Part shown: positions 8,001 to 63,309 of the stretch, piece by piece
Numbering within the stretch: position 1 is the stretch's first letter
Layout of the letters: each line of letters starts with the position of its first letter
Origin: a virus
IMG/VR virus record: IMGVR_UViG_3300034093_002374
Location: 3,814-67,813 of that record
Length of the DNA stretch: 64,000 bases
Direction: 5' to 3' (one strand)
The notes under the pieces: model-generated
Seen by the model: only the letters and a program-made list of their open reading frames with translations
The model's database searches: none
Told to the model about the DNA's origin: nothing
Made by a program: the position numbers and the translations under genes

Positions 8001-11000
8001 CTAAGTTCACCGGACGTTTTGATGGTGAAAGGGAAACGTATGAAGCTTACCAAGTACGGAAACTTGCAGCAATCCAAGAAGCTGATCTCTTGGAACGTCG
8101 CCTTATTATCGAGCGACAGCGCCTTCAAGAAAAAGGTATAAAGCAGCTTAAAATAACTACGTTCCAAGCCTTTTTGGCATCGTCTGTCACAAATATTAAA
8201 GATCAATTAGATATTGATTTCGGTGAGGGAGGTCGTGACTTTGTCGGCACTGGCGAGGAGCTTCGTGAGTTCAATAATGCGGCTAAACGCGTTGCTGATC
8301 TAAATGCTCAAATTGCTACGACGGCTAACTCATCTCAGCTGGCGATTTTGAACTCCAAGCGGTTGGCTGAGCAAGCACGTAGCCAAGCAGAGGCCGAACG
8401 CATCAAGGCTGAAGCGTTCTTTAGCACTAGCAATGAGTTCCTCTCAGGAGTTACTGGCGACTCTGCTCAAAGTATCGGGGCAATGTTTGCTGTCAACCCT
8501 GAAGACTTCAAAGCTTACAAGACTGTTGCCGATGACCTAGCCGATGTAAACACTCAGCTGGCTAACGTACCCACTAACGCCCCTGACGCGCAAGCTCAAA
8601 TCGCGCGGCTAACCGATGAGGCGCTCAATCTTAGTAATCAGTTGGCTCAGCTTGGTCCAAAAGCTTTTAGTATTGAAGCTATAAACGCTGAATTTCAGAA
8701 AGTAAATATTCCAGAAGTTACTCTTGATCAGTATTTGTATTTCTCACCCGAGCATATAAGAGGTCTTCAAGGCAGCTTTCAAGCGGTTGAGATTGCAACA
8801 AATGAAGTTCAAGCAGCACTTTCCAAGCTTGGTGATGACGACGTAAGTCTCCAACGTTATATAGAGTCTCTGCGTAAGCTTCGTCGTGAAATTCAAAACA
8901 CACAAGCTGTAGCAGCGGCTTTGACTGCGGCAGATGTACGCGAGCGTATTGCAGAACGCGGTAGTGGCGCAGCAAGTGCAAGAGCTGTTGGCGATCTTAC
9001 TGGCATCGTGACTACTGCAAGAGGTCTGCAAAATGCAGAGCGTGTTGTTGCACTCTCGCAAGAGCTTCTTGATATACGTGCCCGGTTGGAGCTATACGAT
9101 GTCAATGAAACAGCATCGGCTGATGTCGATCGTGAAATCACACGAGATAAGACTAAAGAAGAACAACTTGTCGCAAGACTCAACGCTCTCAATGCTCCAC
9201 TAGAGAGTGGAGGTGGAGGCACTCCGCGTCTTTTGTCTGACATTCTTGGTCGTTTAAGTGAAGTCGGTATTGCTGTAGACGCAGTAAACTTCACGAGACT
9301 TGCCGCTGACGCGCGTAGTTCTCTTTCTTCAATAGGTGTTAATCTAGATATTATTGCCAAAAGAATTGAAAAAGCAAAACCTGGAGATGACATTTCAGCG
9401 TTGCTCGCTCGTCGTGCTGAGCTGTTTAATGACGCTAGAGTTAAACTTCTAGATACGCTTTACAACACAGGTGCGGGTCTCTCAGCCGCATTCAGTCGTG
9501 TCGGTGTTGCTGACAACGCTGCTATTGCCAGGCTTGACCCGACTGACGCCGCCGGTTTGCTTGCGCTTGATCGCGAGAGTGAGAACCTCCGTCTTCAACG
9601 TGATCAAGTTAATACGCAAGAAGAATTCTTTGCCATCACCCGCAAGATGGCAGACCTTGATCGTGAACGTTTAGCTTACGCCGCCAGACTTGATAAAACA
9701 CTAGAGGAACAAGTTAGCACAATCAATGACGTCTTTAATGCGTCACTGGAAGCTGCTGATGTTCGCTTCTTTGGCGCTGATATGGTGTCACAACTAAGTG
9801 GTATTGCAGCAGGTCTTCAGATCGAACTTCAAAGAGCGGTCGATGGCTTAACATCGCGTCTTGGCGACTCCTTGGAAGAGGCTTTTAGTACGTTCACGGC
9901 AATTCAACGTCGCGGTCAACTAGTTGGTCTGTTCCGTGAGTTTGAAACTAGTCTTGCTGACGCGTTGGGTCGTGGTGCAAGAACCGGCTTCGAGCGTATG
10001 AGCAATCTCGTAGAGGGTATTACCCTTGACGATTACTTGCAAGTCGACCGTAGTACACGTCAAGCTTTGACGCAGGAAGACGTTGCTCTAGAGAGTCTTG
10101 GTAACGTTCTTGATAGTGGTGCTCTCAATGATGAAATGATTCGCTTTATCAATGAGAACTTCACCAATGGCAACATGAGCGCAGTTGATACGATGCGTGG
10201 TCTTGAAGCCATACCGGCGTTCAATGAAGATGTAATGTCGCTGTTTGTCACTCCTATGGAGGCATTGAACGACACTACTCGTCAGCTTGTTGAAGCAACA
10301 CTTGACAATGTTGCTGCCCTGCGCGGCCAAAGTGTTGAGAGGCTGGATACGCCTACGTCAGGCGATCGTGTAAACGAACTCGATACCGTTATTGTAAATG
10401 GCGTTCCTGTTCGTCGCCCGTCTTCAAACCCTGTACTGTCGCCTACCGTGACAGAGGTGCTTGATGAAGACGCTTATGGAAGAGTTGAACGTGGTGTACG
10501 TAGCAATGCTGCTGCGCGTATTGCAGGTGCTGCTGGTCCCAACCAACGAAGACTTGCCATTGCGCTTGCTCAGCTCAGCGGCGTACGTATTGAAGTAGAG
10601 ACTATCAATCTCGCTTCTCGCACGCAACTTGACCAGCTTAACCAGCTTGGCGGTGACTTTGCGCACTACACCGAACAAATGGCGTTGGCGCAAAAAGGCA
10701 TCACTACAGCGTTGACTATACCAGAACTTCAAACACGCATCAATGAAATCGGTCTTCGAATGCAAGACCTTGGTGATTACATTGAAGATGCCGCAAGGCG
10801 CATGGCTGAAGCTGGTCGAACGCTGTCAGATGACGTCAGATCTAATCTGGTTGACTCTGTCAAGGCGTTTGCTAAAGGTGATATGAGTCTAAACGATGTT
10901 GTTGGTTCTTTCCTTGACACGCTGACTGCCTCGATCGTAGACAGGTTTATTGAAGGTCTTATGGATCCACTTACAGGCGAAGGCGGTCTTCTTGATCAAC

Positions 11001-18246: not shown

Positions 18247-18777
18247 ATGTTGGAAGGTCTTGTAGCCTCCCTCGCGAGCAAGGGTCTCGGTCTACTCGCT
18301 GGCGCTGTTGCTAAGCGAGGGACAGACTTCATTAAAGAAAAGACAGGTATTGATTTGTCAGCAACAGCTGAAGTCACAGATGACGAAGCCTCAATGTTGC
18401 GTGAGTTTCAGGAAACTAACCAAGTCGAAATCTTGGCGTATCTTACAGCAAAAGATCAAACAAATCTTGAAAGAGAGCGACTGACGTTTACTGATACGTC
18501 GAACGCCAGAGCAATGCAGATCGCGGCGCTGGGTTCTACAAGCAGCTTCGGTAAGTTGTTCGTTTACATCATGGCTTCGTATCTGTTGGTTGTGTCAACG
18601 GTTTACGTTGGTTACATTACCTTCGGTACAATTCCGGAAGCTAACGTTCGGTTTGCTGACGTCATTCTTGGTTTCTTACTCGGTACTGTAATTTCTTCTG
18701 TCATTAACTTTTTCCTTGGCTCTTCGCGTTCAGCGCAGACCAAAGACGATACTATTGCGAGAGCTCTGCATGGATGA
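18247..18777 (+). CDS. Holin-like membrane protein
   Basis: AAGGA RBS; two C-terminal hydrophobic helices ending FFLGSSRS; overlaps endolysin. Confidence 0.7.
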   Translation: MLEGLVASLASKGLGLLAGAVAKRGTDFIKEKTGIDLSATAEVTDDEASMLREFQETNQVEILAYLTAKDQTNLERERLTFTDTSNARAMQIAALGSTSSFGKLFVYIMASYLLVVSTVYVGYITFGTIPEANVRFADVILGFLLGTVISSVINFFLGSSRSAQTKDDTIARALHG

Positions 18778-19423
18778 GTTTAACTACGACGAGAGCAACT
18801 TGTTTGTTGCTATTCGTGAGCTTCTCGGTCGCGGTTTGACGAGTGACGAAGTTCGCAAGGTGCAGTCGGCTCGTGTTCGTGACGCCGTTGCTCAAGTGAC
18901 AACCGCCGTCGTCTCAGGGCAAAACGGTGCAACGGTCGGTATGCAACCGTCACAACGAATTATTGACTTCCTTCACGAGTTTGAAACGCTTCAGTTGGTG
19001 CCTTATAAAGACCCCGGCTCAGCAAACGGTCTCCCCATCACGTGTGGTTGGGGTTCGACGACGCACCTGGACGGTCGCAAGATTCAACTCGGTGAAGCAC
19101 CCTGGACAAAAGAGTACGCGGACCAAGTTTTCAACAAGGATCTTCGTGCCTTTACTGCGGGTCTTAACCTTCTCATCGGTAAGTCAAAAACGTCCCAAGG
19201 ACAGTTCGACGCCATGTTTAGCTTCGCTTACAATTGTGGACTGGACATCGATGAGGACACGAAAGCAGAGGGTCTCGGTGACAGTACGTTGCTGAGAAAA
19301 CATCTGGCAGGTGACTACGCGGGCGCAGCCGCTCAATTCGCAAGCTGGAATAAAAACGACGGGAAGGTTCTTAACGGACTGACGCGTCGTCGCGCTAGAG
19401 AAGCTGAAATTTACGCTTCTTAA
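18770..19423 (+). CDS. Endolysin (GH24 lysozyme)
   Basis: HEFE..LVPYKD...ITCGWG catalytic region, QFDAMFSFAYNCG, STLLRK, GLTRRRARE. Confidence 0.9.
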   Translation: MDEFNYDESNLFVAIRELLGRGLTSDEVRKVQSARVRDAVAQVTTAVVSGQNGATVGMQPSQRIIDFLHEFETLQLVPYKDPGSANGLPITCGWGSTTHLDGRKIQLGEAPWTKEYADQVFNKDLRAFTAGLNLLIGKSKTSQGQFDAMFSFAYNCGLDIDEDTKAEGLGDSTLLRKHLAGDYAGAAAQFASWNKNDGKVLNGLTRRRAREAEIYAS

Positions 19424-24827: not shown

Positions 24828-25208
24828 ATGCGATTTACTTATGAACTAAAGAACAAAGACGGCAGTCGTAAAGATATTCATACGCGGCTACGCTATGAAG
24901 ACTTTGCTGCGCACATTCGCACCGGCGGCTGGATAGACGTAACAGATCAAGAACGCGTGGCTAAAATGGGACAAAACTACGATTACATTGATTACTCTTT
25001 CCACACGGTTATGCAATTAAACTTCTTTGTAGAAAATAATCGGAATGAAGCAAACGTTTGGGCAAAAAACGAGCCTAAACCAGTAGAGCTTCCGATAGTC
25101 GTAAAAGAGGAAATTGCGTGGCTGCATGAATTGCTAGATGTACTTGTTCGCTGTCCTCGTCCGTCTTTGTTGAGCACAGTAAGCAATATTCTGTCAGGTC
25201 GTAGCTAA
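24828..25208 (+). CDS. Hypothetical protein
   Basis: GAGGG RBS; coupled to polymerase by TAATG. Confidence 0.7.
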   Translation: MRFTYELKNKDGSRKDIHTRLRYEDFAAHIRTGGWIDVTDQERVAKMGQNYDYIDYSFHTVMQLNFFVENNRNEANVWAKNEPKPVELPIVVKEEIAWLHELLDVLVRCPRPSLLSTVSNILSGRS

Positions 25209-27262
25209 TGTGGAAACGCATCTACTTCGACATTGAAGGTGACGCGCTGCTTCGTCACGTAAGTCGTATGTGGTTGCTGTTTGCAATTGATCTTGATACT
25301 GGAGAAAAGCGTTATTTTCTAGAAGGCGACCACGGTTGGCGCGCGCTGTTTGATAACGCCGATCTTGTTGTTGGTCATAACATCACAGGTTACGATCTAA
25401 AGGTGCTTAAAAAACTCTTTGGATATGTCCTAAAACCACATACAAAGAAAATTGACACTGCGCTTCTTTCTCGTGTTCTTAACTGGAAACGCTTCGGTAA
25501 CGATGTTCGCCACAGCCTTGAAGCGTGGGGTCTTGCTCTTGGTTATCCTAAGATTGAGTTTGACGACTTCTCTAAGTTTAGTCCTGAAATGCTCACTTAT
25601 TGTGAGCGTGACTGCGACCTTGGCGTCATGGTATTTAACGTTGTTATGGGTGAGTATGTCGCAACGCGTGAACGGAGCCCGGTAATTGCGGAATACCTTC
25701 GCGCTGAACACGCTGTTGCTGATTGGTCTGCTGAAGCCGAGCTGCAAGGCTGGCCTTTTGACCTTGAAGCAGCAATTGAGCTAGAAGAAATTCTTCAAAA
25801 AGAACTTGACAGAGCGCATGAGCTGCTGTCCCACAAGCTTGGAATGAAAGCCGTGATTGTTGATCGTGTACCTCACGAAGGTATCGGTGAGCCAATGTCG
25901 ATGCTCTATACTAAGCAAGGCATCTATCACGCAGCTAAAGCTTCGTGGTTTGGTATTGAGCCTATTGAAGCTTGGATGGAAGTCGAAGAACGCCCGTATC
26001 AACGTGAGTTTGTCGGTCCTTACTGCCGTGTCAAGTTTGAGGACCTCAGTCTTGACTCAAGCGACGATGTCAAAGTCTTTCTTTACAGACAAGGCTGGGA
26101 GCCTGATGAGTTCAACTACAAGAAAGATCCTGTAACAAAGCGTAGAACGAAAGAAATTTCTTCAGCCAAGATTACAGAAAGTTCTCTTGAATTTCTTGGT
26201 GGTGATGGTGTTCTTTATCGTGAGTTTGTTGTAGCTAAGTCAAGACACTCTAATCTTAAAACATGGATTGAAGAGTGCGACGCAGACGGTAATCTTCACG
26301 GTAGTTGTATGACGGTTGGAACACCTTCAATGCGTTCTACTCACAAGGTTATCGTGAACATTCCTTCCAGCGATTCCGCTTGGGGTCGCCAAATGCGCTC
26401 ACTGTTTAAGTGCAAGCCTGGTTGGAAGCTCATCGGTTGTGACTCTGCATCTAACCAAGCACGTGGTCTTGCTCATAACCTCGGTGACCCTGTCTTTACA
26501 GACAACTTGATCAACGGTGATATTCACAAATACAATGCTGTACTGCTTGACGGCGTTCTTGCAAATATGCGTTTTAACTGGACAGACTTTGTAGTCCGTA
26601 CAGACAAGGCTCGTATTCCTGAAACGCTTGAACGCTGGCTACAACAACGTGGCTTTACCAAAAAAGAGTATCTTGAAAACCGACTACGGTCTAATCGTAA
26701 AGGGGCGCGTAAATGGGCTGAGAAGTTCATATTCGCGGTTAAGAGAGCCGCCGCTAAGCGCATTCTCTACGCCTTTCTTTTCGGTGCTGGCGGTGCTAAA
26801 CTTTGGCTTTATATCACAGGCGCATCCGACGTTACACAAGGTAACAAACTAAAGAACGGTTTCACCAAAGCAGTTCCAGGCTTTAAAGACTTAATTGACA
26901 AGCTGGAACGTATTTATAATAGTACTAAAAAGTACGGTGACGGCTACATTCCTGGAATCGGTGGGAACCGTATTTATGTAGATAGCAATCACAAGTTGCT
27001 AGTTTATCATCTTCAAGCAACGGAAAAAGCAACGTGTGGAGCGGCTTTGATGCTCACAATGGAGAGACTTGAAGCTGCAGGTATTCCTTACGTTCCTTGT
27101 ATTATGATGCACGATGAGATTGATTTCATGGTACCTGAAGAGCACGCTGAGACAGCTCGCTTGATTGGTAAACAAGCATTCATGGATGGTCCGAAGTTGT
27201 TTGGAATCACTATCATGGACGGTAGCGGCAAGGTCGGAGATAATTGGTTTGACGTCCATTGA
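25208..27262 (+). CDS. Family A DNA polymerase with 3'-5' exonuclease
   Basis: Exo I FDIEG, Exo II GHNITGYD, Exo III YCERD; motif A GCDSASNQAR, motif B RAAAKRILYAFLFG, motif C MHDEI. Confidence 0.95.
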   Translation: MWKRIYFDIEGDALLRHVSRMWLLFAIDLDTGEKRYFLEGDHGWRALFDNADLVVGHNITGYDLKVLKKLFGYVLKPHTKKIDTALLSRVLNWKRFGNDVRHSLEAWGLALGYPKIEFDDFSKFSPEMLTYCERDCDLGVMVFNVVMGEYVATRERSPVIAEYLRAEHAVADWSAEAELQGWPFDLEAAIELEEILQKELDRAHELLSHKLGMKAVIVDRVPHEGIGEPMSMLYTKQGIYHAAKASWFGIEPIEAWMEVEERPYQREFVGPYCRVKFEDLSLDSSDDVKVFLYRQGWEPDEFNYKKDPVTKRRTKEISSAKITESSLEFLGGDGVLYREFVVAKSRHSNLKTWIEECDADGNLHGSCMTVGTPSMRSTHKVIVNIPSSDSAWGRQMRSLFKCKPGWKLIGCDSASNQARGLAHNLGDPVFTDNLINGDIHKYNAVLLDGVLANMRFNWTDFVVRTDKARIPETLERWLQQRGFTKKEYLENRLRSNRKGARKWAEKFIFAVKRAAAKRILYAFLFGAGGAKLWLYITGASDVTQGNKLKNGFTKAVPGFKDLIDKLERIYNSTKKYGDGYIPGIGGNRIYVDSNHKLLVYHLQATEKATCGAALMLTMERLEAAGIPYVPCIMMHDEIDFMVPEEHAETARLIGKQAFMDGPKLFGITIMDGSGKVGDNWFDVH

Positions 27263-27701
27263 TTGGAATAAGTATTTTGATTACGTAGAAGGCTTTCTCG
27301 TTTGGAAGGTATCGCGTGGACGTGTCAAAGCAGGTCAGATTGCTGGAAATGTGAATGGTGCCGGTTACTGGCAAGTTATGCTTGATGGTCGTAATCACAT
27401 GGTTGCTAGAATCGTTTGGGAGTTACACAATGGCGCAATAGCAGCAGACTGTGAGATTGACCATTTCGATCGCGATCGACAAAACAATCTGATAGAGAAC
27501 CTTCGCGAAAAGACACCATCGCGTAATTGCCATAATCGAGAGAATCCAGCGAACAAACACGGGTTTCCTGGAGTTCAGAAGGTAGGCACACGCTTTTCTG
27601 CGTCTATTCAGGATAACGTTGGACGTCGATATCTCGGTCGTTTTGATACTGCCGAAGCAGCCTCTGCAGTGTACCAAGCAGAAAAAGCTAAATACAGCTA
27701 A
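27249..27701 (+). CDS. HNH endonuclease (homing-type, AP2-like C-terminus)
   Basis: EIDHFDRDRQNNLIENLR, RYLGRFDTAEAASAVY; GGAGA RBS before TTG 27249. Confidence 0.85.
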   Translation: MTSIDWNKYFDYVEGFLVWKVSRGRVKAGQIAGNVNGAGYWQVMLDGRNHMVARIVWELHNGAIAADCEIDHFDRDRQNNLIENLREKTPSRNCHNRENPANKHGFPGVQKVGTRFSASIQDNVGRRYLGRFDTAEAASAVYQAEKAKYS

Positions 27702-34587: not shown

Positions 34588-35040
34588 ATGACTGCTGACC
34601 GCAAGAAGGCATACTTCATGCGCGTTGCGGAGGAGACCGCTCTGCTTTCACATGCTGTAAAGCTGAAGGTTGGGGCGGTCGCCGTCCGAGATAACCGTAT
34701 TATTTGTACTGGCTATAACGGTACCGGTCCTGGTGAAGATAACTGTTGTGAGCATCGTGTTTGGGTGCCGTACGTTTTATCCGCTGGTGGACAGTATGTA
34801 CTTAAAACTAAAGACAACGTCACTCACGCCGAAAAGAACCTCATTGACTTCGCCGCTAGAAAAGGTATTGCTCTTGAAGGTGCCGAGCTTTTCGTAACTC
34901 ACTCACCCTGTATGGCATGTGCGAGGTCAATTGCCAATGTCGGTTTTACTCACGTCTATTACAAAACTAAGTTCTCTCATCTTGAAGGGCTGGAGTACCT
35001 CGAAGAAGCTAGAGGCGTCACAGTCATCGCGCTTGCTTGA
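34588..35040 (+). CDS. dCMP deaminase
   Basis: KVGAV, TGYNG, HAEKN, THSPCMAC zinc motifs. Confidence 0.92.
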   Translation: MTADRKKAYFMRVAEETALLSHAVKLKVGAVAVRDNRIICTGYNGTGPGEDNCCEHRVWVPYVLSAGGQYVLKTKDNVTHAEKNLIDFAARKGIALEGAELFVTHSPCMACARSIANVGFTHVYYKTKFSHLEGLEYLEEARGVTVIALA

Positions 35041-52855: not shown

Positions 52856-53451
52856 ATGTCTACTATTCTACATACAGGTTTGCGAAGCTTGCTAGAAACG
52901 GTTTATGGCGTCGCTCGTAGTGAACGTCGTATTGTTATCGTTATTGAAGACGGTAAGGCTCTAGAAGTGCGTACCGAGCATGAGCCATCAACACGTGTCA
53001 TACCTTCTTACAGCGAGTTTGTAGAACATTTTGTTGAGAAACGCTTTGAGCCGGTTACACCAAGTCCTTTTAAAAGTCCTACGGCTGCTGACGTACCGCC
53101 TTTCTTTCAAGCACCTACGTCAGGTGAAGGCGGGGCCACGATTTCAGAGGTCGTTCAACAACTCTTGGACGCTAATCCAGGAGCGACGCTTTCGACTATG
53201 CCAGACACAGCAATAACAATCAGTCTCAAGGAGGATCCACCATGGTCGGTTTAGCGATCCTCTCTGCGCTGCCTTGTAAGGCCTGTAACAAACGTCCTGT
53301 GTGGCATACTCAAATGCGTAACACGTTGAGGTGTCCTCCCGGTCAAGTGTTTCTGTCGGACAGCGAAGAAATCTTTTGTGACTCTTTTCTGACAAGATCG
53401 ACGCAAGACGTAGCGGTCCAGGACTGGAATGAACGGCAAAGACATGGCTGA
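52856..53451 (+). other. Two hypothetical CDS (52856-53254; 53242-53451 Cys-containing)
   Basis: Coupled ORFs with RBS. Confidence 0.55.
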
Positions 53452-54838
53452 AGTCAACCTACATGAAGGTCAAACAGCCGTTTTTAAAGACATCTTTCTA
53501 AACTTTGACGACACGCTCGGAGAAGACGGTCTTCCGCTTCTTCTTACAATGGTGTACGTTGTAGCCTGCTGCTCACGTGGTTGGGGGAAGTCTTTTGAGA
53601 TGACCGTTTGTGCAATGACCGCTGTGGTTGAGTTGATGGAACTTGATGACGACGTTCCTAACAAGAACGTTTGGATTATTGCGCCTACGTATGACCAAGT
53701 TACCGAAATTTACTGGCCTATCCTAATCATGTTAGGTGCCACCGAGTACGCTGAGAAATCGTCTAAATCAGATGGTTACTTAGAGTTTCCCGGCAACGTT
53801 CGTCTAGAACTCATCTCGTATGAGTCTGTTGAACGAATGCGTGGTAAAGGCGCTTATTTTGTGGGTTGGGACGAGGTCTCTTCTTGCCACAAAGGAATGC
53901 CCGCTAAAGAAGCCTGGGAAGGCATTATTCAACCGTGTATCGTGACGCGTTGGTCTCCTAAAGCCGCAAGAATGCACGGCTCTAAACGAGCCGGAAGGCT
54001 TTTTGCAATCAGTACTCCTAAAGGGTACAACTTCTTTTATGATATGTACAACTACGCTGAGACAGATCCTGAATGGAAAAGTCATCATTTTGATTTTACT
54101 CAGAGTCCTTATCTTGACGAAGAACAAATCGAGAAGCTACGCTCTAAGATGGACCCCATCAGGTTTGCACAAGAATACCTGGCAACCTTTAAAGATTCTG
54201 GTAACAACGTCTTTTACATGCTCGACAGAAAAGTCCATGCACGAAGAGACCTTGCACCATTCAGACCTCCGGCAGACGATTCTAGCCGTGATGGTGAAGA
54301 TGTTCATGTGTGTATCGACTTTAACGTCGGTATCATGGCTGCATCGTGTTTTGCCTTAAGAGGCAGTCAAATGCAGTTCTTGCATGAATTCAAAGGGCAC
54401 CCTGACACAGACGCGCTCGGTAAACGTCTTCAAGAAAAATTTCGAGGACATAAAATTATTGCGTACCCTGACCCTTCAGGTAAGGCAAGAAAATCATCCG
54501 CAGCAGTAGGTGTCACTGACTTCTCTATTTTGCAATCTTACGGCATTGAAATACGAGCACGCTCAAAAGCGCCTCCTATTGTTGATTCTGTGAACGCTGT
54601 TAATAGACTTCTCATGAATGCCAACGGTGTAGTGTCTATCTTAATTGATCCCGTAGCATGTCCTGGAACACTCGACTCTCTTGAAAGAACTTCATGGGTT
54701 GACCGTAATCCAGATTTGGCAACGATTGATAAAACAGCCGGAGTTGAACACTTCTCTGACGGTGTCCGTTACGCCGCTGAATACTTGTTCCCTGTTACCG
54801 GTGGTACTAAGAAAACTTCAATGGGTCGTTCGTTCTGA
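53444..54838 (+). CDS. Terminase large subunit
   Basis: CSRGWGKS Walker A, IAPTYDQ, GWDE Walker B, ISTPKG, CIDFN, YPDPSG, HFSDGVRY nuclease motifs. Confidence 0.93.
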   Translation: MAEVNLHEGQTAVFKDIFLNFDDTLGEDGLPLLLTMVYVVACCSRGWGKSFEMTVCAMTAVVELMELDDDVPNKNVWIIAPTYDQVTEIYWPILIMLGATEYAEKSSKSDGYLEFPGNVRLELISYESVERMRGKGAYFVGWDEVSSCHKGMPAKEAWEGIIQPCIVTRWSPKAARMHGSKRAGRLFAISTPKGYNFFYDMYNYAETDPEWKSHHFDFTQSPYLDEEQIEKLRSKMDPIRFAQEYLATFKDSGNNVFYMLDRKVHARRDLAPFRPPADDSSRDGEDVHVCIDFNVGIMAASCFALRGSQMQFLHEFKGHPDTDALGKRLQEKFRGHKIIAYPDPSGKARKSSAAVGVTDFSILQSYGIEIRARSKAPPIVDSVNAVNRLLMNANGVVSILIDPVACPGTLDSLERTSWVDRNPDLATIDKTAGVEHFSDGVRYAAEYLFPVTGGTKKTSMGRSF

Positions 54839-54861
54839 CCAAAGTACAGTAAGGAAATTCC

Positions 54862-55395
54862 ATGATCAGAACGCTCACATACGAGCAGAAAGACGCGTTG
54901 CTCACTACGTTGTGGGATCGCTCGCTTGTCGGTGTGGCGTTGGTCACTAAAGAGGGGCGTTTTGAGTTTGCCAACCAGGCTTTCTGTAGACTCCTTGAGT
55001 ACTCAGAAACAGAGCTTCGCAATCGTCATTTTCAAGAACTAACTCACCCAGACGACGTACATGCAGACGTTTCAATGTCCCGTGACATCACGCTTCGTGA
55101 AGCTGATGAATACACGATGCGTAAACGTTACATTACGAAGACTGGTAAAGTCGTTTGGATGATTTTACATGTGCAGGGACTTATCGTTAACGATGAGCTT
55201 CATTATTTCGTGTCTCAAATTTCAGAAATAATTCCTGTACTAAACACAGAAAGAGTTGCGCCTAAACGAACTTCAATATCAACTAGCGCTTTTCGATTTG
55301 TCAAGGATAACCTTGCTTGGATTGTTTTGGCGCTTAGTGGTTTTGCTTACATTGTTGCTGAAATCCTAAAATCCCTCGATGAAGGATCGAAATGA
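54862..55395 (+). CDS. PAS/PAC-domain protein with C-terminal TM helix
   Basis: GRFEFANQAFCRLLEYSETEL...FQELTHPDD...KRYITKTGKVVW PAS signature; LAWIVLALSGFAYIVAEIL. Confidence 0.85.
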   Translation: MIRTLTYEQKDALLTTLWDRSLVGVALVTKEGRFEFANQAFCRLLEYSETELRNRHFQELTHPDDVHADVSMSRDITLREADEYTMRKRYITKTGKVVWMILHVQGLIVNDELHYFVSQISEIIPVLNTERVAPKRTSISTSAFRFVKDNLAWIVLALSGFAYIVAEILKSLDEGSK

Positions 55396-55531
55396 GTAAA
55401 AGCGTTCTATTGAACACTGTTGCTAAGGCCCCTCTTTGGGCCGCGTTAATGTGGAAATGTCGCTAAGGGCAGTCCACGGAGACGTAAGTCCCGACAACCT
55501 ACCTCACATCATTTATTTATAGAGAATTTTT

Positions 55532-55888
55532 ATGTCTGATAACCAATTTCAGCCGCGTGTCGCCAACATTGCTTATCAAAGCGTTTTTGGTTCTAGTGTA
55601 GTGTTTGCAGTCGTGACGATGCAAAACGGTTTCATTGTCACCGGTCAAGCGCCTTGTGTTCGCCTTGAGCACTTCGATCAACAAGCCGCTATGGAAGCTG
55701 CGCTTCAAGACGCCATGTCAAAAGTTTTCATGCTTGAATCGTATTTCCTTGCTGAAGTCGCTATGCAGGAATTCCAACGCGCTCAACTTGAAGCTGATCG
55801 TGTTCAAGAAGAACGTGCTGAAGAAATAACGCTTGAAGCAGCACGTACTCGTCAGGCCGATTCATCGCACCTTGTTGAAGCGCAGTGA
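55532..55888 (+). CDS. N4 gp49/Sf6 gp66-family protein
   Basis: VTMQNGFIVTGQAPCV..EHFD...A..DA.SKVF.LE.Y pattern recalled for this family. Confidence 0.7.
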   Translation: MSDNQFQPRVANIAYQSVFGSSVVFAVVTMQNGFIVTGQAPCVRLEHFDQQAAMEAALQDAMSKVFMLESYFLAEVAMQEFQRAQLEADRVQEERAEEITLEAARTRQADSSHLVEAQ

Positions 55889-56076
55889 CTACCTGGGTAG
55901 ACCGCCTCAAAGACGAACGCCGCGACCTTGTTCTTAGAATCGAAGCCCTCGCGCGTTATAAACTGTCAGACGAGTTTAGGACACTGCCCAAACAAACACA
56001 GCAGTTGATGATGGATCAACATCGTCACATGAATGCTTACGCAGACTGTCTTTACAACCGTCTAAAATTAACCTGA
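55885..56076 (+). CDS. Small helical-hairpin protein (crAss001_48-like)
   Basis: RLKDERRDL..RIEAL...F..L....Q.LM..Q...MNAY..CL..R. Confidence 0.6.
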   Translation: MTTWVDRLKDERRDLVLRIEALARYKLSDEFRTLPKQTQQLMMDQHRHMNAYADCLYNRLKLT

Positions 56077-56089
56077 TCAAGGAGTACGA

Positions 56090-56680
56090 ATGGCCAGGGA
56101 GAAACTGACAGAGGTCTCAACAGACCTCATAACCGATGCTGGTACGGTGCTCTGGTCTTTCATCAAAGGCGAGCAACTAGAATACCCCATCACTCTAGAT
56201 TTTCTTGAAGGTGCCGCAACAACAGGTTACGTTTTTGAAGCCGTTGTTGTCGAAGCGTTGAATGTTCTTGACCAACAAGAGCGTCCTACTACGATTAAGC
56301 CTGCCGGTGTTCAAACAGTACTCGTAGTCCGAAGACCTGATTTTGTCGGTGCTTGGAACGCTCTCACTCAATACAACTATGAAGAAGTTGTGTCTTATGG
56401 CGGTCTTTATTATCGCCTCTTGAGTGGCGTTGCTTACACAAGCGCAACGACGCCTGACTTAGACGCTACGTGGGAAGTAACCACGTTGTCACGGATTTAT
56501 GTTCAGTTCCCTAGTACGTTGGGTGCAACTTATGCTGTACAGCCGACGGTTCTGGGTTCTATTTATGGCTTCTTTGAACTGCGCGTTACTGAGCCAAATA
56601 ACAGTGTCTTTGTAAAGACCTGGAAACCGGTTCGTGGCATGGTAGAACTTCTTTTCAGCCCCACTGACATTGTTGCTTAG
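56090..56680 (+). CDS. Virion structural protein with CBM5/12-like insert
   Basis: AAGGAG RBS; GAWNALTQYNYEEVVSYGGLYY...TPDLDATW. Confidence 0.55.
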   Translation: MAREKLTEVSTDLITDAGTVLWSFIKGEQLEYPITLDFLEGAATTGYVFEAVVVEALNVLDQQERPTTIKPAGVQTVLVVRRPDFVGAWNALTQYNYEEVVSYGGLYYRLLSGVAYTSATTPDLDATWEVTTLSRIYVQFPSTLGATYAVQPTVLGSIYGFFELRVTEPNNSVFVKTWKPVRGMVELLFSPTDIVA

Positions 56681-57360: not shown

Positions 57361-57810
57361 ATGCAAGACTGCTTGAAAGCAAAAGGCGAACTAACGATTC
57401 GTCTTACACGAGAAGACGGTTCTGTTGAAGAGACAAAGGTTAAAAACCTTATTGTTAATCTCGGCCTAGCGTATATCGTCTCCAGGATGAAAGACGCTGC
57501 CGCAACTGCTATGTCACACATGGCAATCGGCACGGGTACTACCGCTGCGTCTGGTGCTCAAACGGCTCTCGTTACTGAAGCCGCTCGGGTCGGTTTGACG
57601 TCGACCACTCTTGTTACTACCGTTGTAGCTAACGACGCTATTCAGTACGTCGCTACGTTTGGAGCAGGTGTCGGTACGGCTGCTATTACTGAAGCCGCGC
57701 TGCTTAACGCTAGCTCCGGTGGTACGATGTTGTGTCGTACGGCTTTCTCGGCGATTAATAAGGGTTCTCTTGATTCCCTTACGATCACCTGGAAAATTAC
57801 GGCTCAGTAA
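57361..57810 (+). CDS. Putative fibre-attachment/structural protein
   Basis: NLIVNLG...MAIGTGTTA....TAL..E...ITEAAL pattern of fibre N-terminal domains. Confidence 0.6.
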   Translation: MQDCLKAKGELTIRLTREDGSVEETKVKNLIVNLGLAYIVSRMKDAAATAMSHMAIGTGTTAASGAQTALVTEAARVGLTSTTLVTTVVANDAIQYVATFGAGVGTAAITEAALLNASSGGTMLCRTAFSAINKGSLDSLTITWKITAQ

Positions 57811-57822
57811 GGAGAGTTCTCG

Positions 57823-60800
57823 ATGACGGCAGCAATCATTACGCGCGCCACGGCGGGAACGGGTGCCACCGTCAAAGGAGCACCTCTCACAAACGCTGAG
57901 GTTGACACGAACTTTATCAACATCAACGCCGAAGTTGATCTTAAAGCTGACTATGCAAGTCCCAAACTTGGGGCGGGTTCGTTAGCGTCGCTGACTACTG
58001 GTACTAATAATACAGCGCTTGGTGTCAACTCTCTTACGCTAAACACGTCGGGTAGTACCAACACAGGCGTAGGCCGTAATACGCTAAACGCAAACACAAC
58101 AGGTACTGATAACACCGCCTCAGGTGCTTTTGCGCTTTTGTCCAACACGACAGGCTCGTATAACACAGCAGACGGTGGTTATGCGCTGCAAAACAACACG
58201 GTTGGCAGTAACAATACCGCAGTCGGTCACAGTGCTCTTGTGTCTGCTACCACAGCCAACAACAACACTGCTGTCGGCGCTTACGCACTGGACGCTAACA
58301 CGACGGGCACCTACAATACCGCTATGGGCGTGAACGCCCTCGGGGCGACTACGACAGGCAACTACAACGTCGTAATCGGGGGAGCCGCCGGAACGAACAA
58401 TACGACCGGATCACTAAACACAGTAGTCGGGTACACCGCTCTGGCGTCAAATACGACGGGCTCACAGAACTCCGCCTTCGGCGCGCAGTCGATGCACAAC
58501 AACACCGAAGGCTACTTTAACGCCGCCTATGGCGCTAACACGCTGTACGCAAACACGACAGGTATCCAGAACACTGCTATTGGGTGGGGTGCGCTAAACC
58601 TAGCTACTACCGCTTCTAACAACGTTGCTGTTGGCGCTTTTGCACTGGATGCCAACATTACAGGCGCGGGTAACGTTGCGGTTGGCTACAACTCGCTCGG
58701 GGCCAACACAACCGCCAGCAACAACAGCGCATTCGGTGTTAACGCACTGCAAAGCACTACTACAGGTGTCGATAACGTCGCGGTAGGGGCCAGTGCTTTG
58801 GCAACAAATACGACGGCTTCTAACAATACAGCTGTGGGTGTAAACGCCTTGTTTGCTAATACCACAGGCGCTAACAATGTGGCTATTGGCCTAAACAGTC
58901 TTGATGCTAACACGACGGGTGCCGAGAACGTCGCGCTAGGGGCGAGCGCGCTTGGGGCTAACACCACGGGCGCGAATAATGTTGCCGTAGGCAATAGCGC
59001 ACTCAGCGCGAACACTACTATTTCAAACCTCACGGCTGTCGGTGTTACGGCGCTACGTGATAACACAACCGGCACTAACAACACCGGACTTGGTCGCGCG
59101 GCACTTCAAGTCAATACGACAGGCAGTGAAAACACTGCCGTCGGTACCTACGCGCTACAAAACAATACTACGGGTGGTAGTAACACAGGCACTGGCTATC
59201 AGGTATTGTTCAGGAACACGACAGGAACTCGCAACTCGGCGTTCGGCCTTAACAGTGCTTTTGATAACACGACCGGTACTGACCTTGCAGGCTTCGGCTA
59301 CGCCGCGCTCGGTGCCAACACGACCGGTACCCTCAACAGTGGTTTCGGCTCTTACGCACTTTATTACAACACCACGGGTGCCGGAAATACTGCCGTAGGT
59401 TACTCTGCACTGTTTTTGAACACGACCGGTACCGTTAATACGGCTGTCGGTCGTAGTGCTATGCAAGCTAACACAACAGGTGAGTACAACGCGGCACTCG
59501 GTTATGTCGCGCTCGCCGGAAACACAATCGGTATCTACAACACCGCAATCGGTGCGTTGGCTCTTTACTCGGCCACAACCGGTAGCTTCAATACCGCGCT
59601 CGGTGGAAACACGTTGAGGTTTGCTTCAACGTCAAGCAACAATATTGCGGTCGGCTACAACGCCCTTTATACAAACACTACAGGGGCACAGAATATCGCC
59701 GTCGGTGTTGGAGCGTTGAACTCTAACACGACTGCGGACTACAACATTGCAATCGGCTACTTAGCGCTCACGGGCAACACAACCGGCAGCCAAAACCTTG
59801 CTGTAGGTACAAGTGCGTTGTTTTCTAATACAACCGGAACGCAAAACTCTGCTTTCGGTTTTCAATCGCTTTATTACAACACAACTGGATATAACAACGT
59901 TACTCAAGGTTATAATACGTTGTTTGCCAATGTTAGTGGCGCTAATAATACGGCAATTGGACACAGCGCGCTCGCGGCAAACACTGCCTCTAATAACACG
60001 GCTGTTGGTGCAAACGCTCTAGACGCTAACACCACGGGTACTTACAATACCGCTGTTGGTTCAGGAGCGTTAGGAGCTAATACAACGGGCGCTGATAACG
60101 CTGCGTTTGGCGGGTTAGCACTAGTTACTAACACGACCGGTATTAACAACATTGCTATCGGCACTGTGGCTTTGCATTCCAATACCACAGGTAGCTACAA
60201 CATAGCTAACGGCGTTAACGCGCTACTTAACAATAGTACTGGAACTGGCAACATTGGTGTCGGTCAAGACGCCCTTAGAGCCAACACCACGGCCTCCAAC
60301 AACATCGCAATTGGCGCGTACGCGCTGGACGCTAACACGACGGGCGCTAGCAATGCGGCGGTGGGCTATAGTTCGCTTAGCGCTAATACAACTGGCGTAG
60401 GAAACGTAGCTGTCGGTGTGTATACACTGTATGCAAATACAATCGGACAAAACAATGTCGCTATTGGTCCAAGTGCACTAGAAACAAACACTACAGGCAG
60501 TCAAAATACAGCCGTAGGAATGCAAGCACTTTTGTATGCTACGACTGGCAATTATAACGTCGCTGTCGGTGCAGCGTCTTTGGATGCTTGCACTACAGGC
60601 TCCGACAACACTGCTGTAGGATCTAGTGCCCTTAGTTCTGTAACTACGGCGTCAAACAACACCGCTGTTGGTAGAGCGGCTCTAAGAGACACTTCAACCG
60701 GGCAAAATAACGTAGCCCTTGGCTATCAAGCGCTAGCAAGCAACACGACAGGTGTTGAAAACGTAGCAGTTGGTGTTAACTCGCTAGTAGCCAATACTAC

Positions 60801-63309
60801 TGGTTATTATAATACCGCTATTGGTACTTATGCACTAACTTCTAACACAACTGGCTTTACTAACGTAGCAGTTGGCATGAGCGCTTTGACGGCTAATACA
60901 ACAGGCGCATATAACGTATGCCTTGGTCTTTCAACGTTCTTTAGCAACACCACCGGTAATAACAACATCGGCGTAGGTTATACCGCTGGCTATTATAATA
61001 CGACTGGTGTTGAAAACATTGCAATCGGCGGTTCGTCGCTACAAGTAAACACTACTGGTAATTCTAACTGCGCCATTGGGCAACAAGCCTTGTTGTATAA
61101 CTCCACGGGGAGCAATAACGTAGGCATTGGTTCAGGTGCACTTCGAGCTAACACCGTTACCGATAACACGGCTGTGGGTGTAAATGCAGGTTATAACACT
61201 TCTACCGGTGAACGTAACGTGTTTCTTGGACGCGCGGCGGCACAAACTAACACAACTGGTAGTTATAACATTGCTGTTGGTTACACGGCTTTGAATTCAA
61301 ACACTACAGGTGGCAATATTGTCGCCGTTGGTTACAATGCGTTGTCGGCCAACACAACAGCTTCACACAACACGGCAGTCGGTGCTTACTCGCTTCAAAC
61401 TACTACAACGGGTAATGCTAACGCAGCCGTTGGCTACAATTCTATGGGTTTGAATACAACCGGAGCAGAAAATTCTGCATTTGGTTATTCAGCCATGGCG
61501 TCTAATACAACCGGCTCTTATAACACTGCAGTCGGCATTGTAGCGTTGAATGCTAACACTACAGGCCACAATAACGTCGCCGTCGGTCGTAGTGCGTTGC
61601 CTGCCAACACAACTGGTGCTTATAATACGGCACTCGGTGCTCAGAGTCTTTATAGTAATACAACGGCGAGTCTTAACGTTTCTATTGGTTACGGCACGCT
61701 GTATGCTAACACAACAGGCGCATATAATACGGCTGTTGGTACGTACGCTTTGGACGCAAATACGACGGGCCAAGATAACGTTGCGGTTGGTTACAACTCG
61801 CTAGGGGCGAACACAACGGCAAACAACAATATTGCTATCGGCTCTAACATAATGTCGTCTAATACGACCGGTGCGCAAAACTTTGCCGCTGGTACGTATG
61901 CAATGGCTTCTAACACGACCGGTTCGGAAAACGTTGCCATTGGCTTCCAAGCGTTGCTGAGCAACACAACCGCAAGTTACAGCGTCGCAATCGGCCGTAA
62001 TGCTTTGCTGAATTCTACTGTTAATGCCAACGTTGCAATTGGTTGTTTCTCACTCGCCGCGAACACGACAGGTACATATAACGTAGCTGTCGGGACGTAC
62101 GCGTTAGAAGATAACACAACCGGTTACTCTAACGTCTCTGTCGGTTACAACTCAATGGCTGCAAATACGGTAGGCAGCGAAAATGTGGCCGTTGGTTTCT
62201 TTGCGCTTACTAGCAACACAACTGGCAGCTACAACACTGCTATGGGTATTGCGGCGCTATACTCCACTACGACTGGCAGCTACAACACTGCAGTTGGTGC
62301 CGGTAGTTCAGAGAAAGTAACTACAGGTGCTAATAATACAAGCATCGGCTATCGTGCACTTTACAACAACACAAGCGCCTCCAGTAACGTAGCAGTCGGT
62401 TCAAATGCGCTAATTAACAACACAACCGGCTCACAGAACACAGCTGTAGGTACGGCGTCATTGGCAACCGCCACGACGGCTGATCTTAACACAGCTATCG
62501 GCGTGGCTACTTTGGCCGCATCAACGACCGGCACTCAGAACACCGCCGTTGGCGCGGAAGCCCTGGACGCTAACACAACCGGCAGTTATAATATTGCTGT
62601 TGGTTATGGGGCGGGCGGTGCCAACACAACCGGTAGCTATAATACTGTTGTTGGTCGTTCGGCATTCTTAACAAACACCTCAGGTAGTAGCAACACTGCG
62701 CTTGGCTACGCAGCACTGTATGCTTCAACAACGGGTGACAGCAACACGGCTGTCGGTAACAGCGCTCTAAGTGGCAACACAACTGGTACTCAAAACGTAG
62801 CGATGGGTCTAGGCGCACTAGAAAACAACACAACCGCGAACTACAACACCGCTGTCGGTGTGCAGTCGCAGCAGGTAAACACAACCGGCACGCAGAACAC
62901 CTCGATCGGCCACCGCGCTTTGTATCAGAATACAACCGGCTCACAGAATGCCGCGTTTGGCTTGAGCGCGATGGAAAGTAACACTACTGGCCAAGACAAC
63001 GTCGCCCTTGGTCGTTACTCTCTCCATACTAACACCACCGGCAACGTAAATATCGCCATCGGTCACTACGTCGTCTGTGACAGCAGTACCGGCAGCAACC
63101 AAATCAACATCGGCAACGTTTACCGCCATAATCGTCTGGTTCATACACCTGTCACGCTTGCCACTCTCAACGCTTTTGTCGGCCTAGCGACGGGCACCCG
63201 AGCAATGTGCTCGGATTCAAATCATAGGAATTTCGATCAAACTGTCTCCGGTGGCGGTAGTAATACTGTGCCTGTGTGGTACAACGGTTCTAACTGGGTC
63301 GTTGGTTAA
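57823..63309 (+). CDS. Long beta-helical fibre/adhesin (~120 x 14-aa repeats)
   Basis: NTTGxxNxAxGxxAL repeats, YadA-head-like; KGAPLTNAEVDTNF N-terminal motif. Confidence 0.88.
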   Translation: MTAAIITRATAGTGATVKGAPLTNAEVDTNFININAEVDLKADYASPKLGAGSLASLTTGTNNTALGVNSLTLNTSGSTNTGVGRNTLNANTTGTDNTASGAFALLSNTTGSYNTADGGYALQNNTVGSNNTAVGHSALVSATTANNNTAVGAYALDANTTGTYNTAMGVNALGATTTGNYNVVIGGAAGTNNTTGSLNTVVGYTALASNTTGSQNSAFGAQSMHNNTEGYFNAAYGANTLYANTTGIQNTAIGWGALNLATTASNNVAVGAFALDANITGAGNVAVGYNSLGANTTASNNSAFGVNALQSTTTGVDNVAVGASALATNTTASNNTAVGVNALFANTTGANNVAIGLNSLDANTTGAENVALGASALGANTTGANNVAVGNSALSANTTISNLTAVGVTALRDNTTGTNNTGLGRAALQVNTTGSENTAVGTYALQNNTTGGSNTGTGYQVLFRNTTGTRNSAFGLNSAFDNTTGTDLAGFGYAALGANTTGTLNSGFGSYALYYNTTGAGNTAVGYSALFLNTTGTVNTAVGRSAMQANTTGEYNAALGYVALAGNTIGIYNTAIGALALYSATTGSFNTALGGNTLRFASTSSNNIAVGYNALYTNTTGAQNIAVGVGALNSNTTADYNIAIGYLALTGNTTGSQNLAVGTSALFSNTTGTQNSAFGFQSLYYNTTGYNNVTQGYNTLFANVSGANNTAIGHSALAANTASNNTAVGANALDANTTGTYNTAVGSGALGANTTGADNAAFGGLALVTNTTGINNIAIGTVALHSNTTGSYNIANGVNALLNNSTGTGNIGVGQDALRANTTASNNIAIGAYALDANTTGASNAAVGYSSLSANTTGVGNVAVGVYTLYANTIGQNNVAIGPSALETNTTGSQNTAVGMQALLYATTGNYNVAVGAASLDACTTGSDNTAVGSSALSSVTTASNNTAVGRAALRDTSTGQNNVALGYQALASNTTGVENVAVGVNSLVANTTGYYNTAIGTYALTSNTTGFTNVAVGMSALTANTTGAYNVCLGLSTFFSNTTGNNNIGVGYTAGYYNTTGVENIAIGGSSLQVNTTGNSNCAIGQQALLYNSTGSNNVGIGSGALRANTVTDNTAVGVNAGYNTSTGERNVFLGRAAAQTNTTGSYNIAVGYTALNSNTTGGNIVAVGYNALSANTTASHNTAVGAYSLQTTTTGNANAAVGYNSMGLNTTGAENSAFGYSAMASNTTGSYNTAVGIVALNANTTGHNNVAVGRSALPANTTGAYNTALGAQSLYSNTTASLNVSIGYGTLYANTTGAYNTAVGTYALDANTTGQDNVAVGYNSLGANTTANNNIAIGSNIMSSNTTGAQNFAAGTYAMASNTTGSENVAIGFQALLSNTTASYSVAIGRNALLNSTVNANVAIGCFSLAANTTGTYNVAVGTYALEDNTTGYSNVSVGYNSMAANTVGSENVAVGFFALTSNTTGSYNTAMGIAALYSTTTGSYNTAVGAGSSEKVTTGANNTSIGYRALYNNTSASSNVAVGSNALINNTTGSQNTAVGTASLATATTADLNTAIGVATLAASTTGTQNTAVGAEALDANTTGSYNIAVGYGAGGANTTGSYNTVVGRSAFLTNTSGSSNTALGYAALYASTTGDSNTAVGNSALSGNTTGTQNVAMGLGALENNTTANYNTAVGVQSQQVNTTGTQNTSIGHRALYQNTTGSQNAAFGLSAMESNTTGQDNVALGRYSLHTNTTGNVNIAIGHYVVCDSSTGSNQINIGNVYRHNRLVHTPVTLATLNAFVGLATGTRAMCSDSNHRNFDQTVSGGGSNTVPVWYNGSNWVVG

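Follow-up and report, generated by a model that had tools for sequence, protein, structure and literature searches.

INTRODUCTION

PAS domains are textbook knowledge, and sensing encoded by phages is known from a handful of cases, for example, arbitrium and VqmA-Phage. The phage-encoded sensors known to us are almost all found in temperate phages and have transcription factors as their outputs. Here, we describe PAS-TM, a 177-amino-acid (aa) phage protein in which a single PAS domain is followed by a flexible linker and a predicted C-terminal transmembrane (TM) anchor. Its gene lies on a stretch of 64,000 nucleotides, referred to below as the window, which corresponds to bases 3814-67813 of the linear, 67,813-base IMG/VR virus record IMGVR_UViG_3300034093_002374 (estimated completeness, 86%).

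VqmA-Phage of vibriophage VP882 is a phage-encoded PAS sensor protein that serves as a quorum-sensing receptor (PMC8284805). VqmA-Phage is a soluble transcription factor with a helix-turn-helix (HTH) output, carried by a temperate, plasmid-like phage, whereas PAS-TM has a predicted membrane anchor and no HTH match, and no integrase or repressor was matched among the window open reading frames (ORFs) scanned. In the order of its parts, PAS-TM resembles the aerotaxis receptor Aer, where a cytoplasmic N-terminal PAS domain, a linker (F1), and a membrane segment also follow one another. The Aer PAS domain binds FAD, and the protein continues with HAMP and MCP signaling domains; in PAS-TM, by contrast, Pfam and NCBIfam gave no HAMP or MCPsignal match, and the hydrophobic helix is followed by just 7 residues. 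Foldseek matches to the PAS-TM model included the Aer PAS structure (8dik; E = 5.7e-7, target TM-score 0.68), and Aer was absent from the 36 PDB sequence matches at E ≤ 1e-3, the best of which were LOV2 domains (2.2e-6).

Single PAS domains without an effector also occur in short cellular PAS/LOV proteins (Pseudomonas short LOV, Deinococcus), but these are soluble and lack the C-terminal membrane helix of PAS-TM. Stand-alone PAS S-box proteins of Deinococcus, 125 to 138 aa long and 36 to 37% identical, were the nearest named relatives outside the family described below. Small PAS proteins of uncultured Caudovirales in BFVD/UniProt (A0A6J5KZZ3, 169 aa; A0A6J5NY05, 205 aa; A0A6J5QVN9, 195 aa) are of similar size, carry an automatic "PAS domain" label, and matched the PAS-TM model structurally (E = 3.8e-7 to 1.9e-4). 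However, the match is structural only, with an identity of 10 to 16% in the structural alignments, and none of these proteins was experimentally annotated among the entries shown.

The S-box PAS modules of bacterial multi-PAS sensor histidine kinases and GGDEF/EAL proteins have the same fold as PAS-TM and share nearly all of its consensus (N..C, Y..EL, ITHPDD, Y.M.KRY, K.G...W). Unlike them, PAS-TM has one PAS domain and no kinase, GGDEF, or EAL domain, and a flexible linker and membrane helix stand in place of the D-I-x-x-R-K sequence, the "DIT" motif at the end of the last strand through which PAS cores are joined to a continuous helix as output linker. PAS-TM also differs from these modules in having E for the G of the "GY" motif and W for F18.

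RESULTS

PAS-TM joins a PAS fold to a predicted membrane anchor

The first-pass annotation of this DNA, made from the sequence alone, had described a PAS signature directly after the terminase gene, fused to one C-terminal TM helix and lacking a kinase or GGDEF output, and each of these points held. Five Pfam PAS models scored above their gathering scores (bits/gathering score: PAS_3, 36.2/25.6; PAS_9, 36.1/27; PAS, 28.9/22.6; PAS_4, 27.9/23.1; PAS_8, 26.3/21.8), and TIGR00229 (sensory_box) reached 63.2 bits against a cut-off of 22.9 (E = 2.5e-17). An AlphaFold2 (AF2) model, built on a 58-sequence family alignment, had a mean pLDDT of 93.9 and a pTM of 0.70; its core consists of five strands (residues 24-28, 33-37, 83-91, 97-109, and 112-122) and four short helices (39-45, 49-53, 57-60, and 63-77). 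When this model was searched with Foldseek, solved PAS domains were matched at a probability of 1.00 with target TM-scores of 0.82 to 0.90 (3olo, 8px4, 3lyx, 4pky). Cofactor- or ligand-binding PAS domains (FAD, heme, and FMN; AHR and HIF-2) were also among the structural matches, and the ESM Atlas returned generic PAS clusters only. The PAS fold was thus confirmed by both profile and structure.

Toward the C terminus, the best hydrophobic 19-mer starts at residue 151 and ends 8 residues before the end of the protein (Kyte-Doolittle [KD] mean, 2.12), and a helix was modeled by AF2 at residues 151-175. The N-side flank of this segment (FRFVKDN) is more basic than the tail on its C-side (KSLDEGSK). 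By the positive-inside rule, this distribution would place the PAS domain in the cytoplasm, and PAS-TM is predicted to be a tail-anchored inner-membrane protein whose N-terminal PAS domain faces the cytoplasm.

No output domain (kinase HisKA/HATPase_c, GGDEF, EAL, HTH, or other) was found in Pfam and NCBIfam scans of PAS-TM. The NCBIfam kinase and cyclase equivalogs matched the PAS part only, far below their cut-offs, and the length of 177 aa leaves no room for an output domain. The best curated match was to the PAS region (profile positions 311-424 of 1111) of the diguanylate cyclase model NF007298 (PRK09776), presumably of the Escherichia coli YegE/DgcE type. This match (E = 1.3e-26) is at the level of the domain only, PAS-TM scoring 92.8 bits against a whole-protein cut-off of 1135 bits.

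A blue-light (LOV) photoreceptor was considered and rejected. The adduct-forming cysteine of LOV domains sits in the motif GXNCRFLQ; in a HMMER alignment of the family consensus to phototropin-2 LOV2, the cysteine column (A in that mutant chain) faces F57, and the flavin (FMN) motif is absent, the sequence reading R-R-F-Q-D-I-T-H-P.

PAS-TM defines a family of phage proteins

A single-sequence search gave 16 matches among 73 candidates. Eleven of them were full-length relatives (170 to 199 aa, 42 to 100% identity) that share the PAS domain, the linker, and the C-terminal hydrophobic helix, the closest being P0002 (90% identical) and P0003 (79%). With a profile of these 11 proteins, 881 proteins of 93 to 349 aa were found at E ≤ 1e-10 among 7350 candidates. 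The 120 matches listed include 104 short relatives of ≤235 aa. In 64 of these 104, a hydrophobic 19-mer reaching KD ≥ 1.6 lies at the C terminus, and many others fell just below this value at the same position.

In the 58-member alignment (A2), the family is characterized by a length of 165 to 205 aa, an N-cap helix, one PAS domain, a variable Pro-rich linker, an "IK-x-NW" helix, and a C-terminal hydrophobic helix, with W18, E46-Y47, ITHPDD, and M-x-KRYITKTG-x-x-VW as its PAS signature; the window protein has all of these features. N38, P63, D65, Y90, and K93 do not vary at all, and conservation reaches ≥90% at 17 further positions. Conservation is lowest in the membrane helix, and the linker varies in both length and sequence, while the IK-x-NW lead-in is kept. 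Members span 30 to 90% identity, and the full-length architecture is maintained down to about 30%. In the source databases, they bear automatic names ("PAS domain S-box-containing protein") or none. In a sub-branch on jumbo-sized contigs (P0242, P0255, P0259, and P0260; e.g., locus L029, on a 189-kb contig), a second hydrophobic segment follows the first (…GVALTVGVFGGFLN…), and these proteins may span the membrane twice.

The family carriers are IMG/VR phage contigs with a GC content of 0.27 to 0.63. Siphovirus-like, sheath-bearing, and jumbo-sized genomes are represented among these uncultured phages: there are phages with J-like tail proteins (L005, L021, and L024), one with sheath and tube (L001), and one with a T4-like baseplate region (L032), and two contigs measure 189 kb (L029) and 255 kb (L034). 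A megablast search of 53429-56100 against deposited phage genomes found nothing, and neither did tblastn with four members (the window protein, P0242, P0204, and P0201) against 50,697 deposited phage genomes; no cultured carrier was thus found among deposited genomes, which is not proof of absence. No close relative came from a single-protein scan of viral contigs, and none of the scans returned the contigs that encode P0002 and P0003. A metagenome scan gave seven loci, three of which (L011-L013) were cellular multidomain PAS proteins and were set aside. In a genome scan with 63 loci, the ORF at the match was inspected in 19 and was mostly a long cellular sensor protein; short forms were seen at L035, L036, L038, L040, L050, and L053, with a hydrophobic C-terminal segment in L035, L038, L050, and L053 only.

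The PAS-TM gene is under purifying selection

Contigs from four lake or freshwater runs (three DNA and one RNA library) revealed 34 variant places in 54300-56100. All seven variants in the PAS-TM gene were synonymous, compared with 8 of 10 in the covered part of the gene for the large terminase subunit (TerL) upstream and, downstream, 5 of 7 in a gene of the N4 gp49 family and 6 of 8 in one of the crAss001_48 family. Since roughly a quarter of random substitutions are estimated to be synonymous, this pattern indicates purifying selection on PAS-TM. The RNA-library run (X24) covers 54394-54622 only, as a single 230-base contig inside TerL, and is uninformative on PAS-TM expression.

The family is related to, and distinct from, cellular PAS domains

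A profile search irrespective of length matched 75,028 proteins at E ≤ 1e-3, a number swamped by long multi-PAS cellular proteins that gives no measure of the size of the PAS-TM family. Among the 150 matches listed, three were stand-alone family members, and nearly all others were large proteins (several hundred to >2,000 residues) that matched in at least two stretches. Cellular PAS domains scored 110 to 135 bits against a hidden Markov model (HMM) of the family PAS core. In a quick IQ-TREE analysis of 58 family cores and the 70 best cellular PAS domains, the family lay on one side of a single branch (SH-aLRT 88), and all of 500 label shuffles required more label changes than the observed arrangement. 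This would be compatible with a single origin followed by spread among phages.

A column-by-column comparison of the family with 200 cellular domains showed that nearly every conserved position of the family recurs in the cellular set: the conserved G24, N38, C42, Y47, E51, L52, T61, and H62 are shared with a cellular multi-PAS subfamily, and P63, D65, K88, R89, Y90, K93, G95, and W99 are also common to both sets. Substitutions specific to the family were W18 (0.97; F at 0.86 in the cellular set), E46 in place of a cellular G conserved at 0.99, T92 for H, and T94 for D. At the C-terminal end of the core, the cellular D-I-x-x-R-K (D 0.88, I 0.89, R 0.72, K 0.77) is lost, with E at 0.52, L at 0.33, V at 0.31, and E at 0.17 in the family. 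One point on which the first-pass annotation would have fallen was a recent, non-conserved host fragment; instead, the gene carries synonymous variants only, and it belongs to a phage family of 30 to 90% identity that stands apart from the 70 cellular PAS domains.

PAS-TM genes occupy variable, mostly late positions

Features of the window and the neighbors of PAS-TM genes elsewhere are collected in Table 1. The PAS-TM gene, single-copy in the 67,813-base record, starts 23 nucleotides (nt) past the TGA of TerL, and between the two genes no sigma-70-like promoter and no terminator-like site was found on the + strand. PAS-TM is most probably cotranscribed with the terminase and structural genes.

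Table 1. Features in and around the PAS-TM gene and neighbors of PAS-TM genes at other loci (positions in the window, or locus)
Feature	Position or locus	Strand	Basis or remark
Large terminase subunit (TerL)	53429..54838	+	Gene directly upstream of PAS-TM; phrog_2, 8.3e-34; PF03237, 27.6 bits
Ribosome-binding site AAGGAA	54851..54856	+	5 nt before the PAS-TM ATG; read from sequence
PAS-TM gene, 177 aa, ATG start	54862..55395 including stop codon	+	ORF list, Pfam PAS models, TIGR00229, variants
N-terminal cap helix, residues 7-19, including family-specific W18	54880..54918	+	DSSP on AF2 model
PAS core, residues about 21-122, five strands and four short helices	54922..55227	+	Block pLDDT about 98; Foldseek
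Flexible Pro-containing linker, residues 123-138	55228..55275	+	No secondary structure; block pLDDT down to 66
Juxtamembrane helix, residues 139-149, FRFVKDNL region	55276..55308	+	Model; "IK-x-NW" consensus in A2
Predicted C-terminal TM anchor, residues about 151-170, then 7-residue tail	55312..55371	+	Hydrophobicity; modeled helix
24-aa ORF, unsupported as gene	55392..55466	+	ORF list; no counterpart elsewhere; variant non-synonymous
GC hairpin GGCCC-6 nt-GGGCC in the 136-nt gap before the next gene	55427..55442	+	Possible RNA stem without T-run
Endolysin	18716-19423		36 kb from the PAS-TM gene
Neighbor: TerL	Window; L003, L025		Directly upstream in the window; three to four genes away in L003 and L025
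Neighbor: tail tube	L001		PAS-TM between tail tube and 785-aa ORF
Neighbor: J-like tail protein	L005, L021, L024		
Neighbor: other tail protein	L023, L028		
Neighbor: baseplate wedge genes	L032		
Neighbor: head protein or head protease	L015, L026		
Neighbor: Amidase_2 endolysin	L015		Start overlapped by the PAS-TM gene; PAS-TM flanked by small one- or two-TM ORFs
Neighbors: lysozyme-like gene, 92-aa two-TM ORF, Rz-like spanin	L053		All before PAS-TM; spanin match phrog_739, 3.7e-5
Neighbor: PhoH	L030, L053		
Neighbor: ThyX	L029		
Neighbor: cytidyltransferase	L010		
Neighbor: sugar epimerase	L033		

The survey of phage homologues that the first-pass annotation had called for covered 20 distinct loci. 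Besides the window, these were 18 phage contigs and a phage-like region in a metagenome-assembled genome (MAG) contig of Brevundimonas (L053), and the outcome was variable. A structural, packaging, or lysis gene lies within three genes of PAS-TM (five for L003) in 13 of the 20 loci, whereas lysis genes adjoin it in two (L015 and L053), as does PhoH in two. PhoH also occupies the slot after TerL in the phage DSS3_PM1. At 14 of 18 other loci, an ORF of at least 57 aa starts -8 to +12 nt from the end of PAS-TM, and the gene concerned differs each time. With variable neighbors, mostly in late operons, PAS-TM behaves like an autonomous accessory gene and not like part of a fixed module; it resembles a movable ("moron"-type) gene carried by many unrelated tailed phages.

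The closest relative in the genome collections (50% identity, identical to P0009) lies at L053:4565-7151, in the phage-like region of the 208-kb Brevundimonas sp. MAG contig. The order there is tailspike-like gene, lysozyme-like gene, two-TM ORF, Rz-like spanin, PAS-TM, and PhoH, with ribonucleotide reductase, dNMP kinase, and ThyX on the other strand. This setting is a hint that this family branch has alphaproteobacteria as hosts. In L003:1033-3322 (GC 0.29) and L007:1208-3529 (GC 0.27), a conserved block around PAS-TM lies upstream of TerL and portal and comprises a 92- to 93-aa two-TM protein, a 65- to 70-aa ORF, PAS-TM, a 183-aa ORF, and two ORFs of about 110 to 130 aa with N-terminal hydrophobic segments. 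The small membrane proteins of this block, which no family matched, could be lysis genes.

A short ORF behind PAS-TM is unsupported as a gene

The first-pass annotation had also reported a coupled 24-aa ORF behind PAS-TM. The ORF does exist, its ATG overlaps the PAS-TM stop codon (ATGA), and GAAGGA is found 5 nt upstream, but this sequence is part of the last codons of the PAS-TM gene. The 7 kb around it contain 105 ORFs of at least 20 aa, so that one of this size could arise by chance. At 18 other family loci, no similar small ORF follows PAS-TM, and the single variant observed in the 24-aa ORF is non-synonymous (A13V). As a gene, the 24-aa ORF is thus unsupported.

The fold of 55385-55535, a segment that includes the GC hairpin listed in Table 1, had an energy of -40.1 kcal/mol (z = -2.30), and 4 of 200 shuffles were as good; a variant in the hairpin stem, C55429T, would keep a G-U pair. 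Rfam gave no family above chance on 54500-56200, the single match having an E value of 0.86.

The phage carrying PAS-TM looks virulent

Among the products encoded in the window are an endolysin, a distal tail protein, a DNA polymerase, a primase-helicase, a single-subunit RNA polymerase, a DNA ligase, a ribonucleotide reductase, and a dCMP deaminase; fibre-like genes come after the gene for the large terminase. A scan of 73 window ORFs against PHROGs matched no integrase or repressor family, and the phage looks like a virulent one. Metagenome runs from lake water and freshwater contained near-identical DNA (24 rows from 23 studies, two flagged as a possible assembly source).

The nearest named relative of TerL is its counterpart in the roseophage DSS3_PM1 (Bacteriophage DSS3_PM1, Naomviridae), with 52.1% identity; EBPR siphovirus 1 follows with 51.7% (sites concerned, 53429-54838 and 34588-35040). 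In Naomviridae, dT is replaced by dU in the DNA. No thymidylate synthase was matched among the window ORFs scanned, and the window encodes a dCMP deaminase and a ribonucleotide reductase.

Other parts of the window were also noted. The tape-measure ORF (2051-11824, +) is of exceptional length, 3257 aa, which would imply a very long tail; its PHROG tape-measure matches lie mainly in the first ~340 residues. At 57823-63309 (+), a protein of 1828 aa consists almost wholly of short repeats of the N-T-T-G/N-N-T-A type and matches virion-structural and tailspike PHROGs in 15 to 20 stretches (phrog_23837, E = 0; phrog_4636, 3e-252), with three small fibre-like genes upstream, one of them Gp80-like (57361-57810). 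An HNH endonuclease ORF (27165-27701, +; phrog_99, 1.2e-46) overlaps the 3' end of the DNA polymerase gene (25208-27262) and may be a homing endonuclease at the polymerase locus. Directly downstream of PAS-TM, at 55532-56076 (+), are two overlapping genes, one for an N4 gp49/Sf6 gp66-family protein (PF13876, 7.2e-10) and the other for a crAss001_48-family protein (PF21825, 1.4e-15); both families are widespread in phages. In a lake variant, the GTG start of the crAss001_48-family gene is changed to ATG.

DISCUSSION

The new element described here is a phage-specific family reduced to one PAS domain and a membrane anchor. Such a protein was not found in print: full-text searches of the literature, whose coverage excludes subscription journals, found no paper on a phage protein of the PAS-plus-membrane-anchor type.

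For the function of PAS-TM, we tentatively favor, with a probability of roughly one in three, a membrane-tethered binding module that interferes with host PAS signaling. Since the linker is flexible and the coupling motif is lost, the helix would be a tether and not a signal wire, and the PAS domain would have to act by binding instead of by signal transduction. The tether would concentrate a generic "S-box" PAS module beside the membrane-bound multi-PAS kinases and cyclic di-GMP (c-di-GMP) enzymes of the host. As PAS-TM is a near-consensus copy of these host modules and is predicted to sit in the same membrane, tethering would favor non-productive PAS-PAS contacts or the capture of the ligand of host sensors, and host signaling might be blunted or redirected late in infection. 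The first-pass annotation had likewise suggested a dominant-negative decoy of a host PAS kinase or cyclase. The fit to the host consensus, the match to NF007298, and the lost coupling motif with its floppy linker agree with that suggestion and leave the decoy function itself a proposal.

Several points weigh against such interference. The interaction with host PAS proteins is putative, and membrane insertion and topology are predicted solely from hydrophobicity and charge. The occurrence of the same PAS features across hosts of 27 to 63% GC argues for a universal ligand or a very conserved target and not for mimicry of one kinase. Residues in common with cellular PAS domains may simply be those that determine the fold, and W18, E46, T92, and T94 could equally mean a new specificity unrelated to host PAS proteins. 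The late structural placement in 13 of 20 loci would suit a late membrane function, e.g., control of lysis, at least as well. The tree comes from a quick search on 120 columns, with an SH-aLRT of 88 for the key branch and rows chosen by their similarity to the family profile. As for the variants, contig depth was <5 with one contig per difference, and no single run spans the whole gene.

The first-pass annotation had also proposed a sensor that tunes lysis timing. PAS-TM would then be a regulator comparable to an antiholin or holin modulator, whose helix pairs with a holin and whose PAS domain advances or delays hole formation in response to host energy, redox, or a metabolite. Its probable late expression, with a start 23 nt after TerL and no promoter- or terminator-like site between, would be consistent with this, as would a predicted membrane protein with a single helix of small-residue spacing and the 13 of 20 loci set among late structural, packaging, or lysis genes. 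The most direct context is the overlap with the start of the Amidase_2 endolysin in L015 and the position in L053 behind a lysozyme-like gene, a two-TM ORF, and an Rz-like spanin match. However, this context is weak, as lysis genes adjoin PAS-TM in these two loci only, and in the window the endolysin is 36 kb off. Furthermore, no holin, antiholin, or spanin family in Pfam, PHROGs, or NCBIfam matched PAS-TM, no part of the protein is less conserved than the membrane helix, and the flexible linker could hardly pass a signal from the PAS domain mechanically to the helix. We consider a lysis-timing role rather doubtful. The broader proposal that many tailed-phage lineages carry a tail-anchored PAS sensor of cell energy, redox, or metabolites, signaling via its helix to the lysis machinery or another membrane process, appears distinctly unlikely. 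An active pocket could instead serve as a small-molecule sensor or sink with another role at the membrane, such as binding of a metabolite or second messenger, superinfection exclusion, or counter-defense, with the pocket and not PAS-PAS contacts doing the work. Polar core residues are invariant or nearly so in 58 members from diverse hosts (N38, H62, D65, K88, R89, Y90, K93, and Q119), cofactor- and ligand-binding PAS domains are among the structural matches, and a moron-like, variable placement is typical of host-directed accessory genes. However, the same polar residues are conserved in cellular PAS modules for which we know of no cofactor, the position of the LOV cysteine is taken by F57 with no FMN motif, and no PADLOC defense model matched; we regard such a sensor or sink as unlikely.

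The structural neighbors of PAS-TM would also suit a factor for virion assembly, or one associated with the tail, that is held at the membrane during morphogenesis. The gene adjoins those for tail proteins (L005, L021, L023, and L024), tail tube and a 785-aa ORF (L001), and baseplate wedge (L032), and in the window it stands between TerL and fibre-like genes. Its position is not fixed relative to any structural gene, though, and it is also found beside PhoH, ThyX, cytidyltransferase, and sugar epimerase. Moreover, we know of no assembly protein that resembles a cytoplasmic PAS domain on a membrane anchor, and this role seems highly improbable. Lastly, PAS-TM could be a recently captured fragment of a host multi-PAS protein with no function of its own, given that cellular PAS domains score 110 to 135 bits against the family core HMM and share most of its conserved residues. 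Against this stand the seven of seven synonymous variants, an architecture kept to about 30% identity in phages of 27 to 63% GC, the single branch that splits the family from the nearest cellular domains, and the family's own substitutions and conserved, added anchor. A captured fragment is thus close to refuted.

PAS-TM is a classical sensor domain under purifying selection in an apparently virulent phage, with a membrane anchor as its sole output, and this design recurs in many uncultured phages of diverse hosts. The protein is short, the model is confident, the family alignment is deep, and the family-specific residues are obvious targets for mutation. Even if its function were trivial, the family would help to annotate a "hypothetical protein" that is common in freshwater and other viromes. 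If the reading as a sensor of energy, redox, or metabolite state were true, PAS-TM would represent a new class of phage sensor that lets virulent phages time the end of infection by host physiology. Each of the possible roles, whether the poisoning of host PAS signaling, the sensing of metabolites, or the timing of lysis, would be a new and tractable handle on how phages read or rewire the physiology of their hosts.

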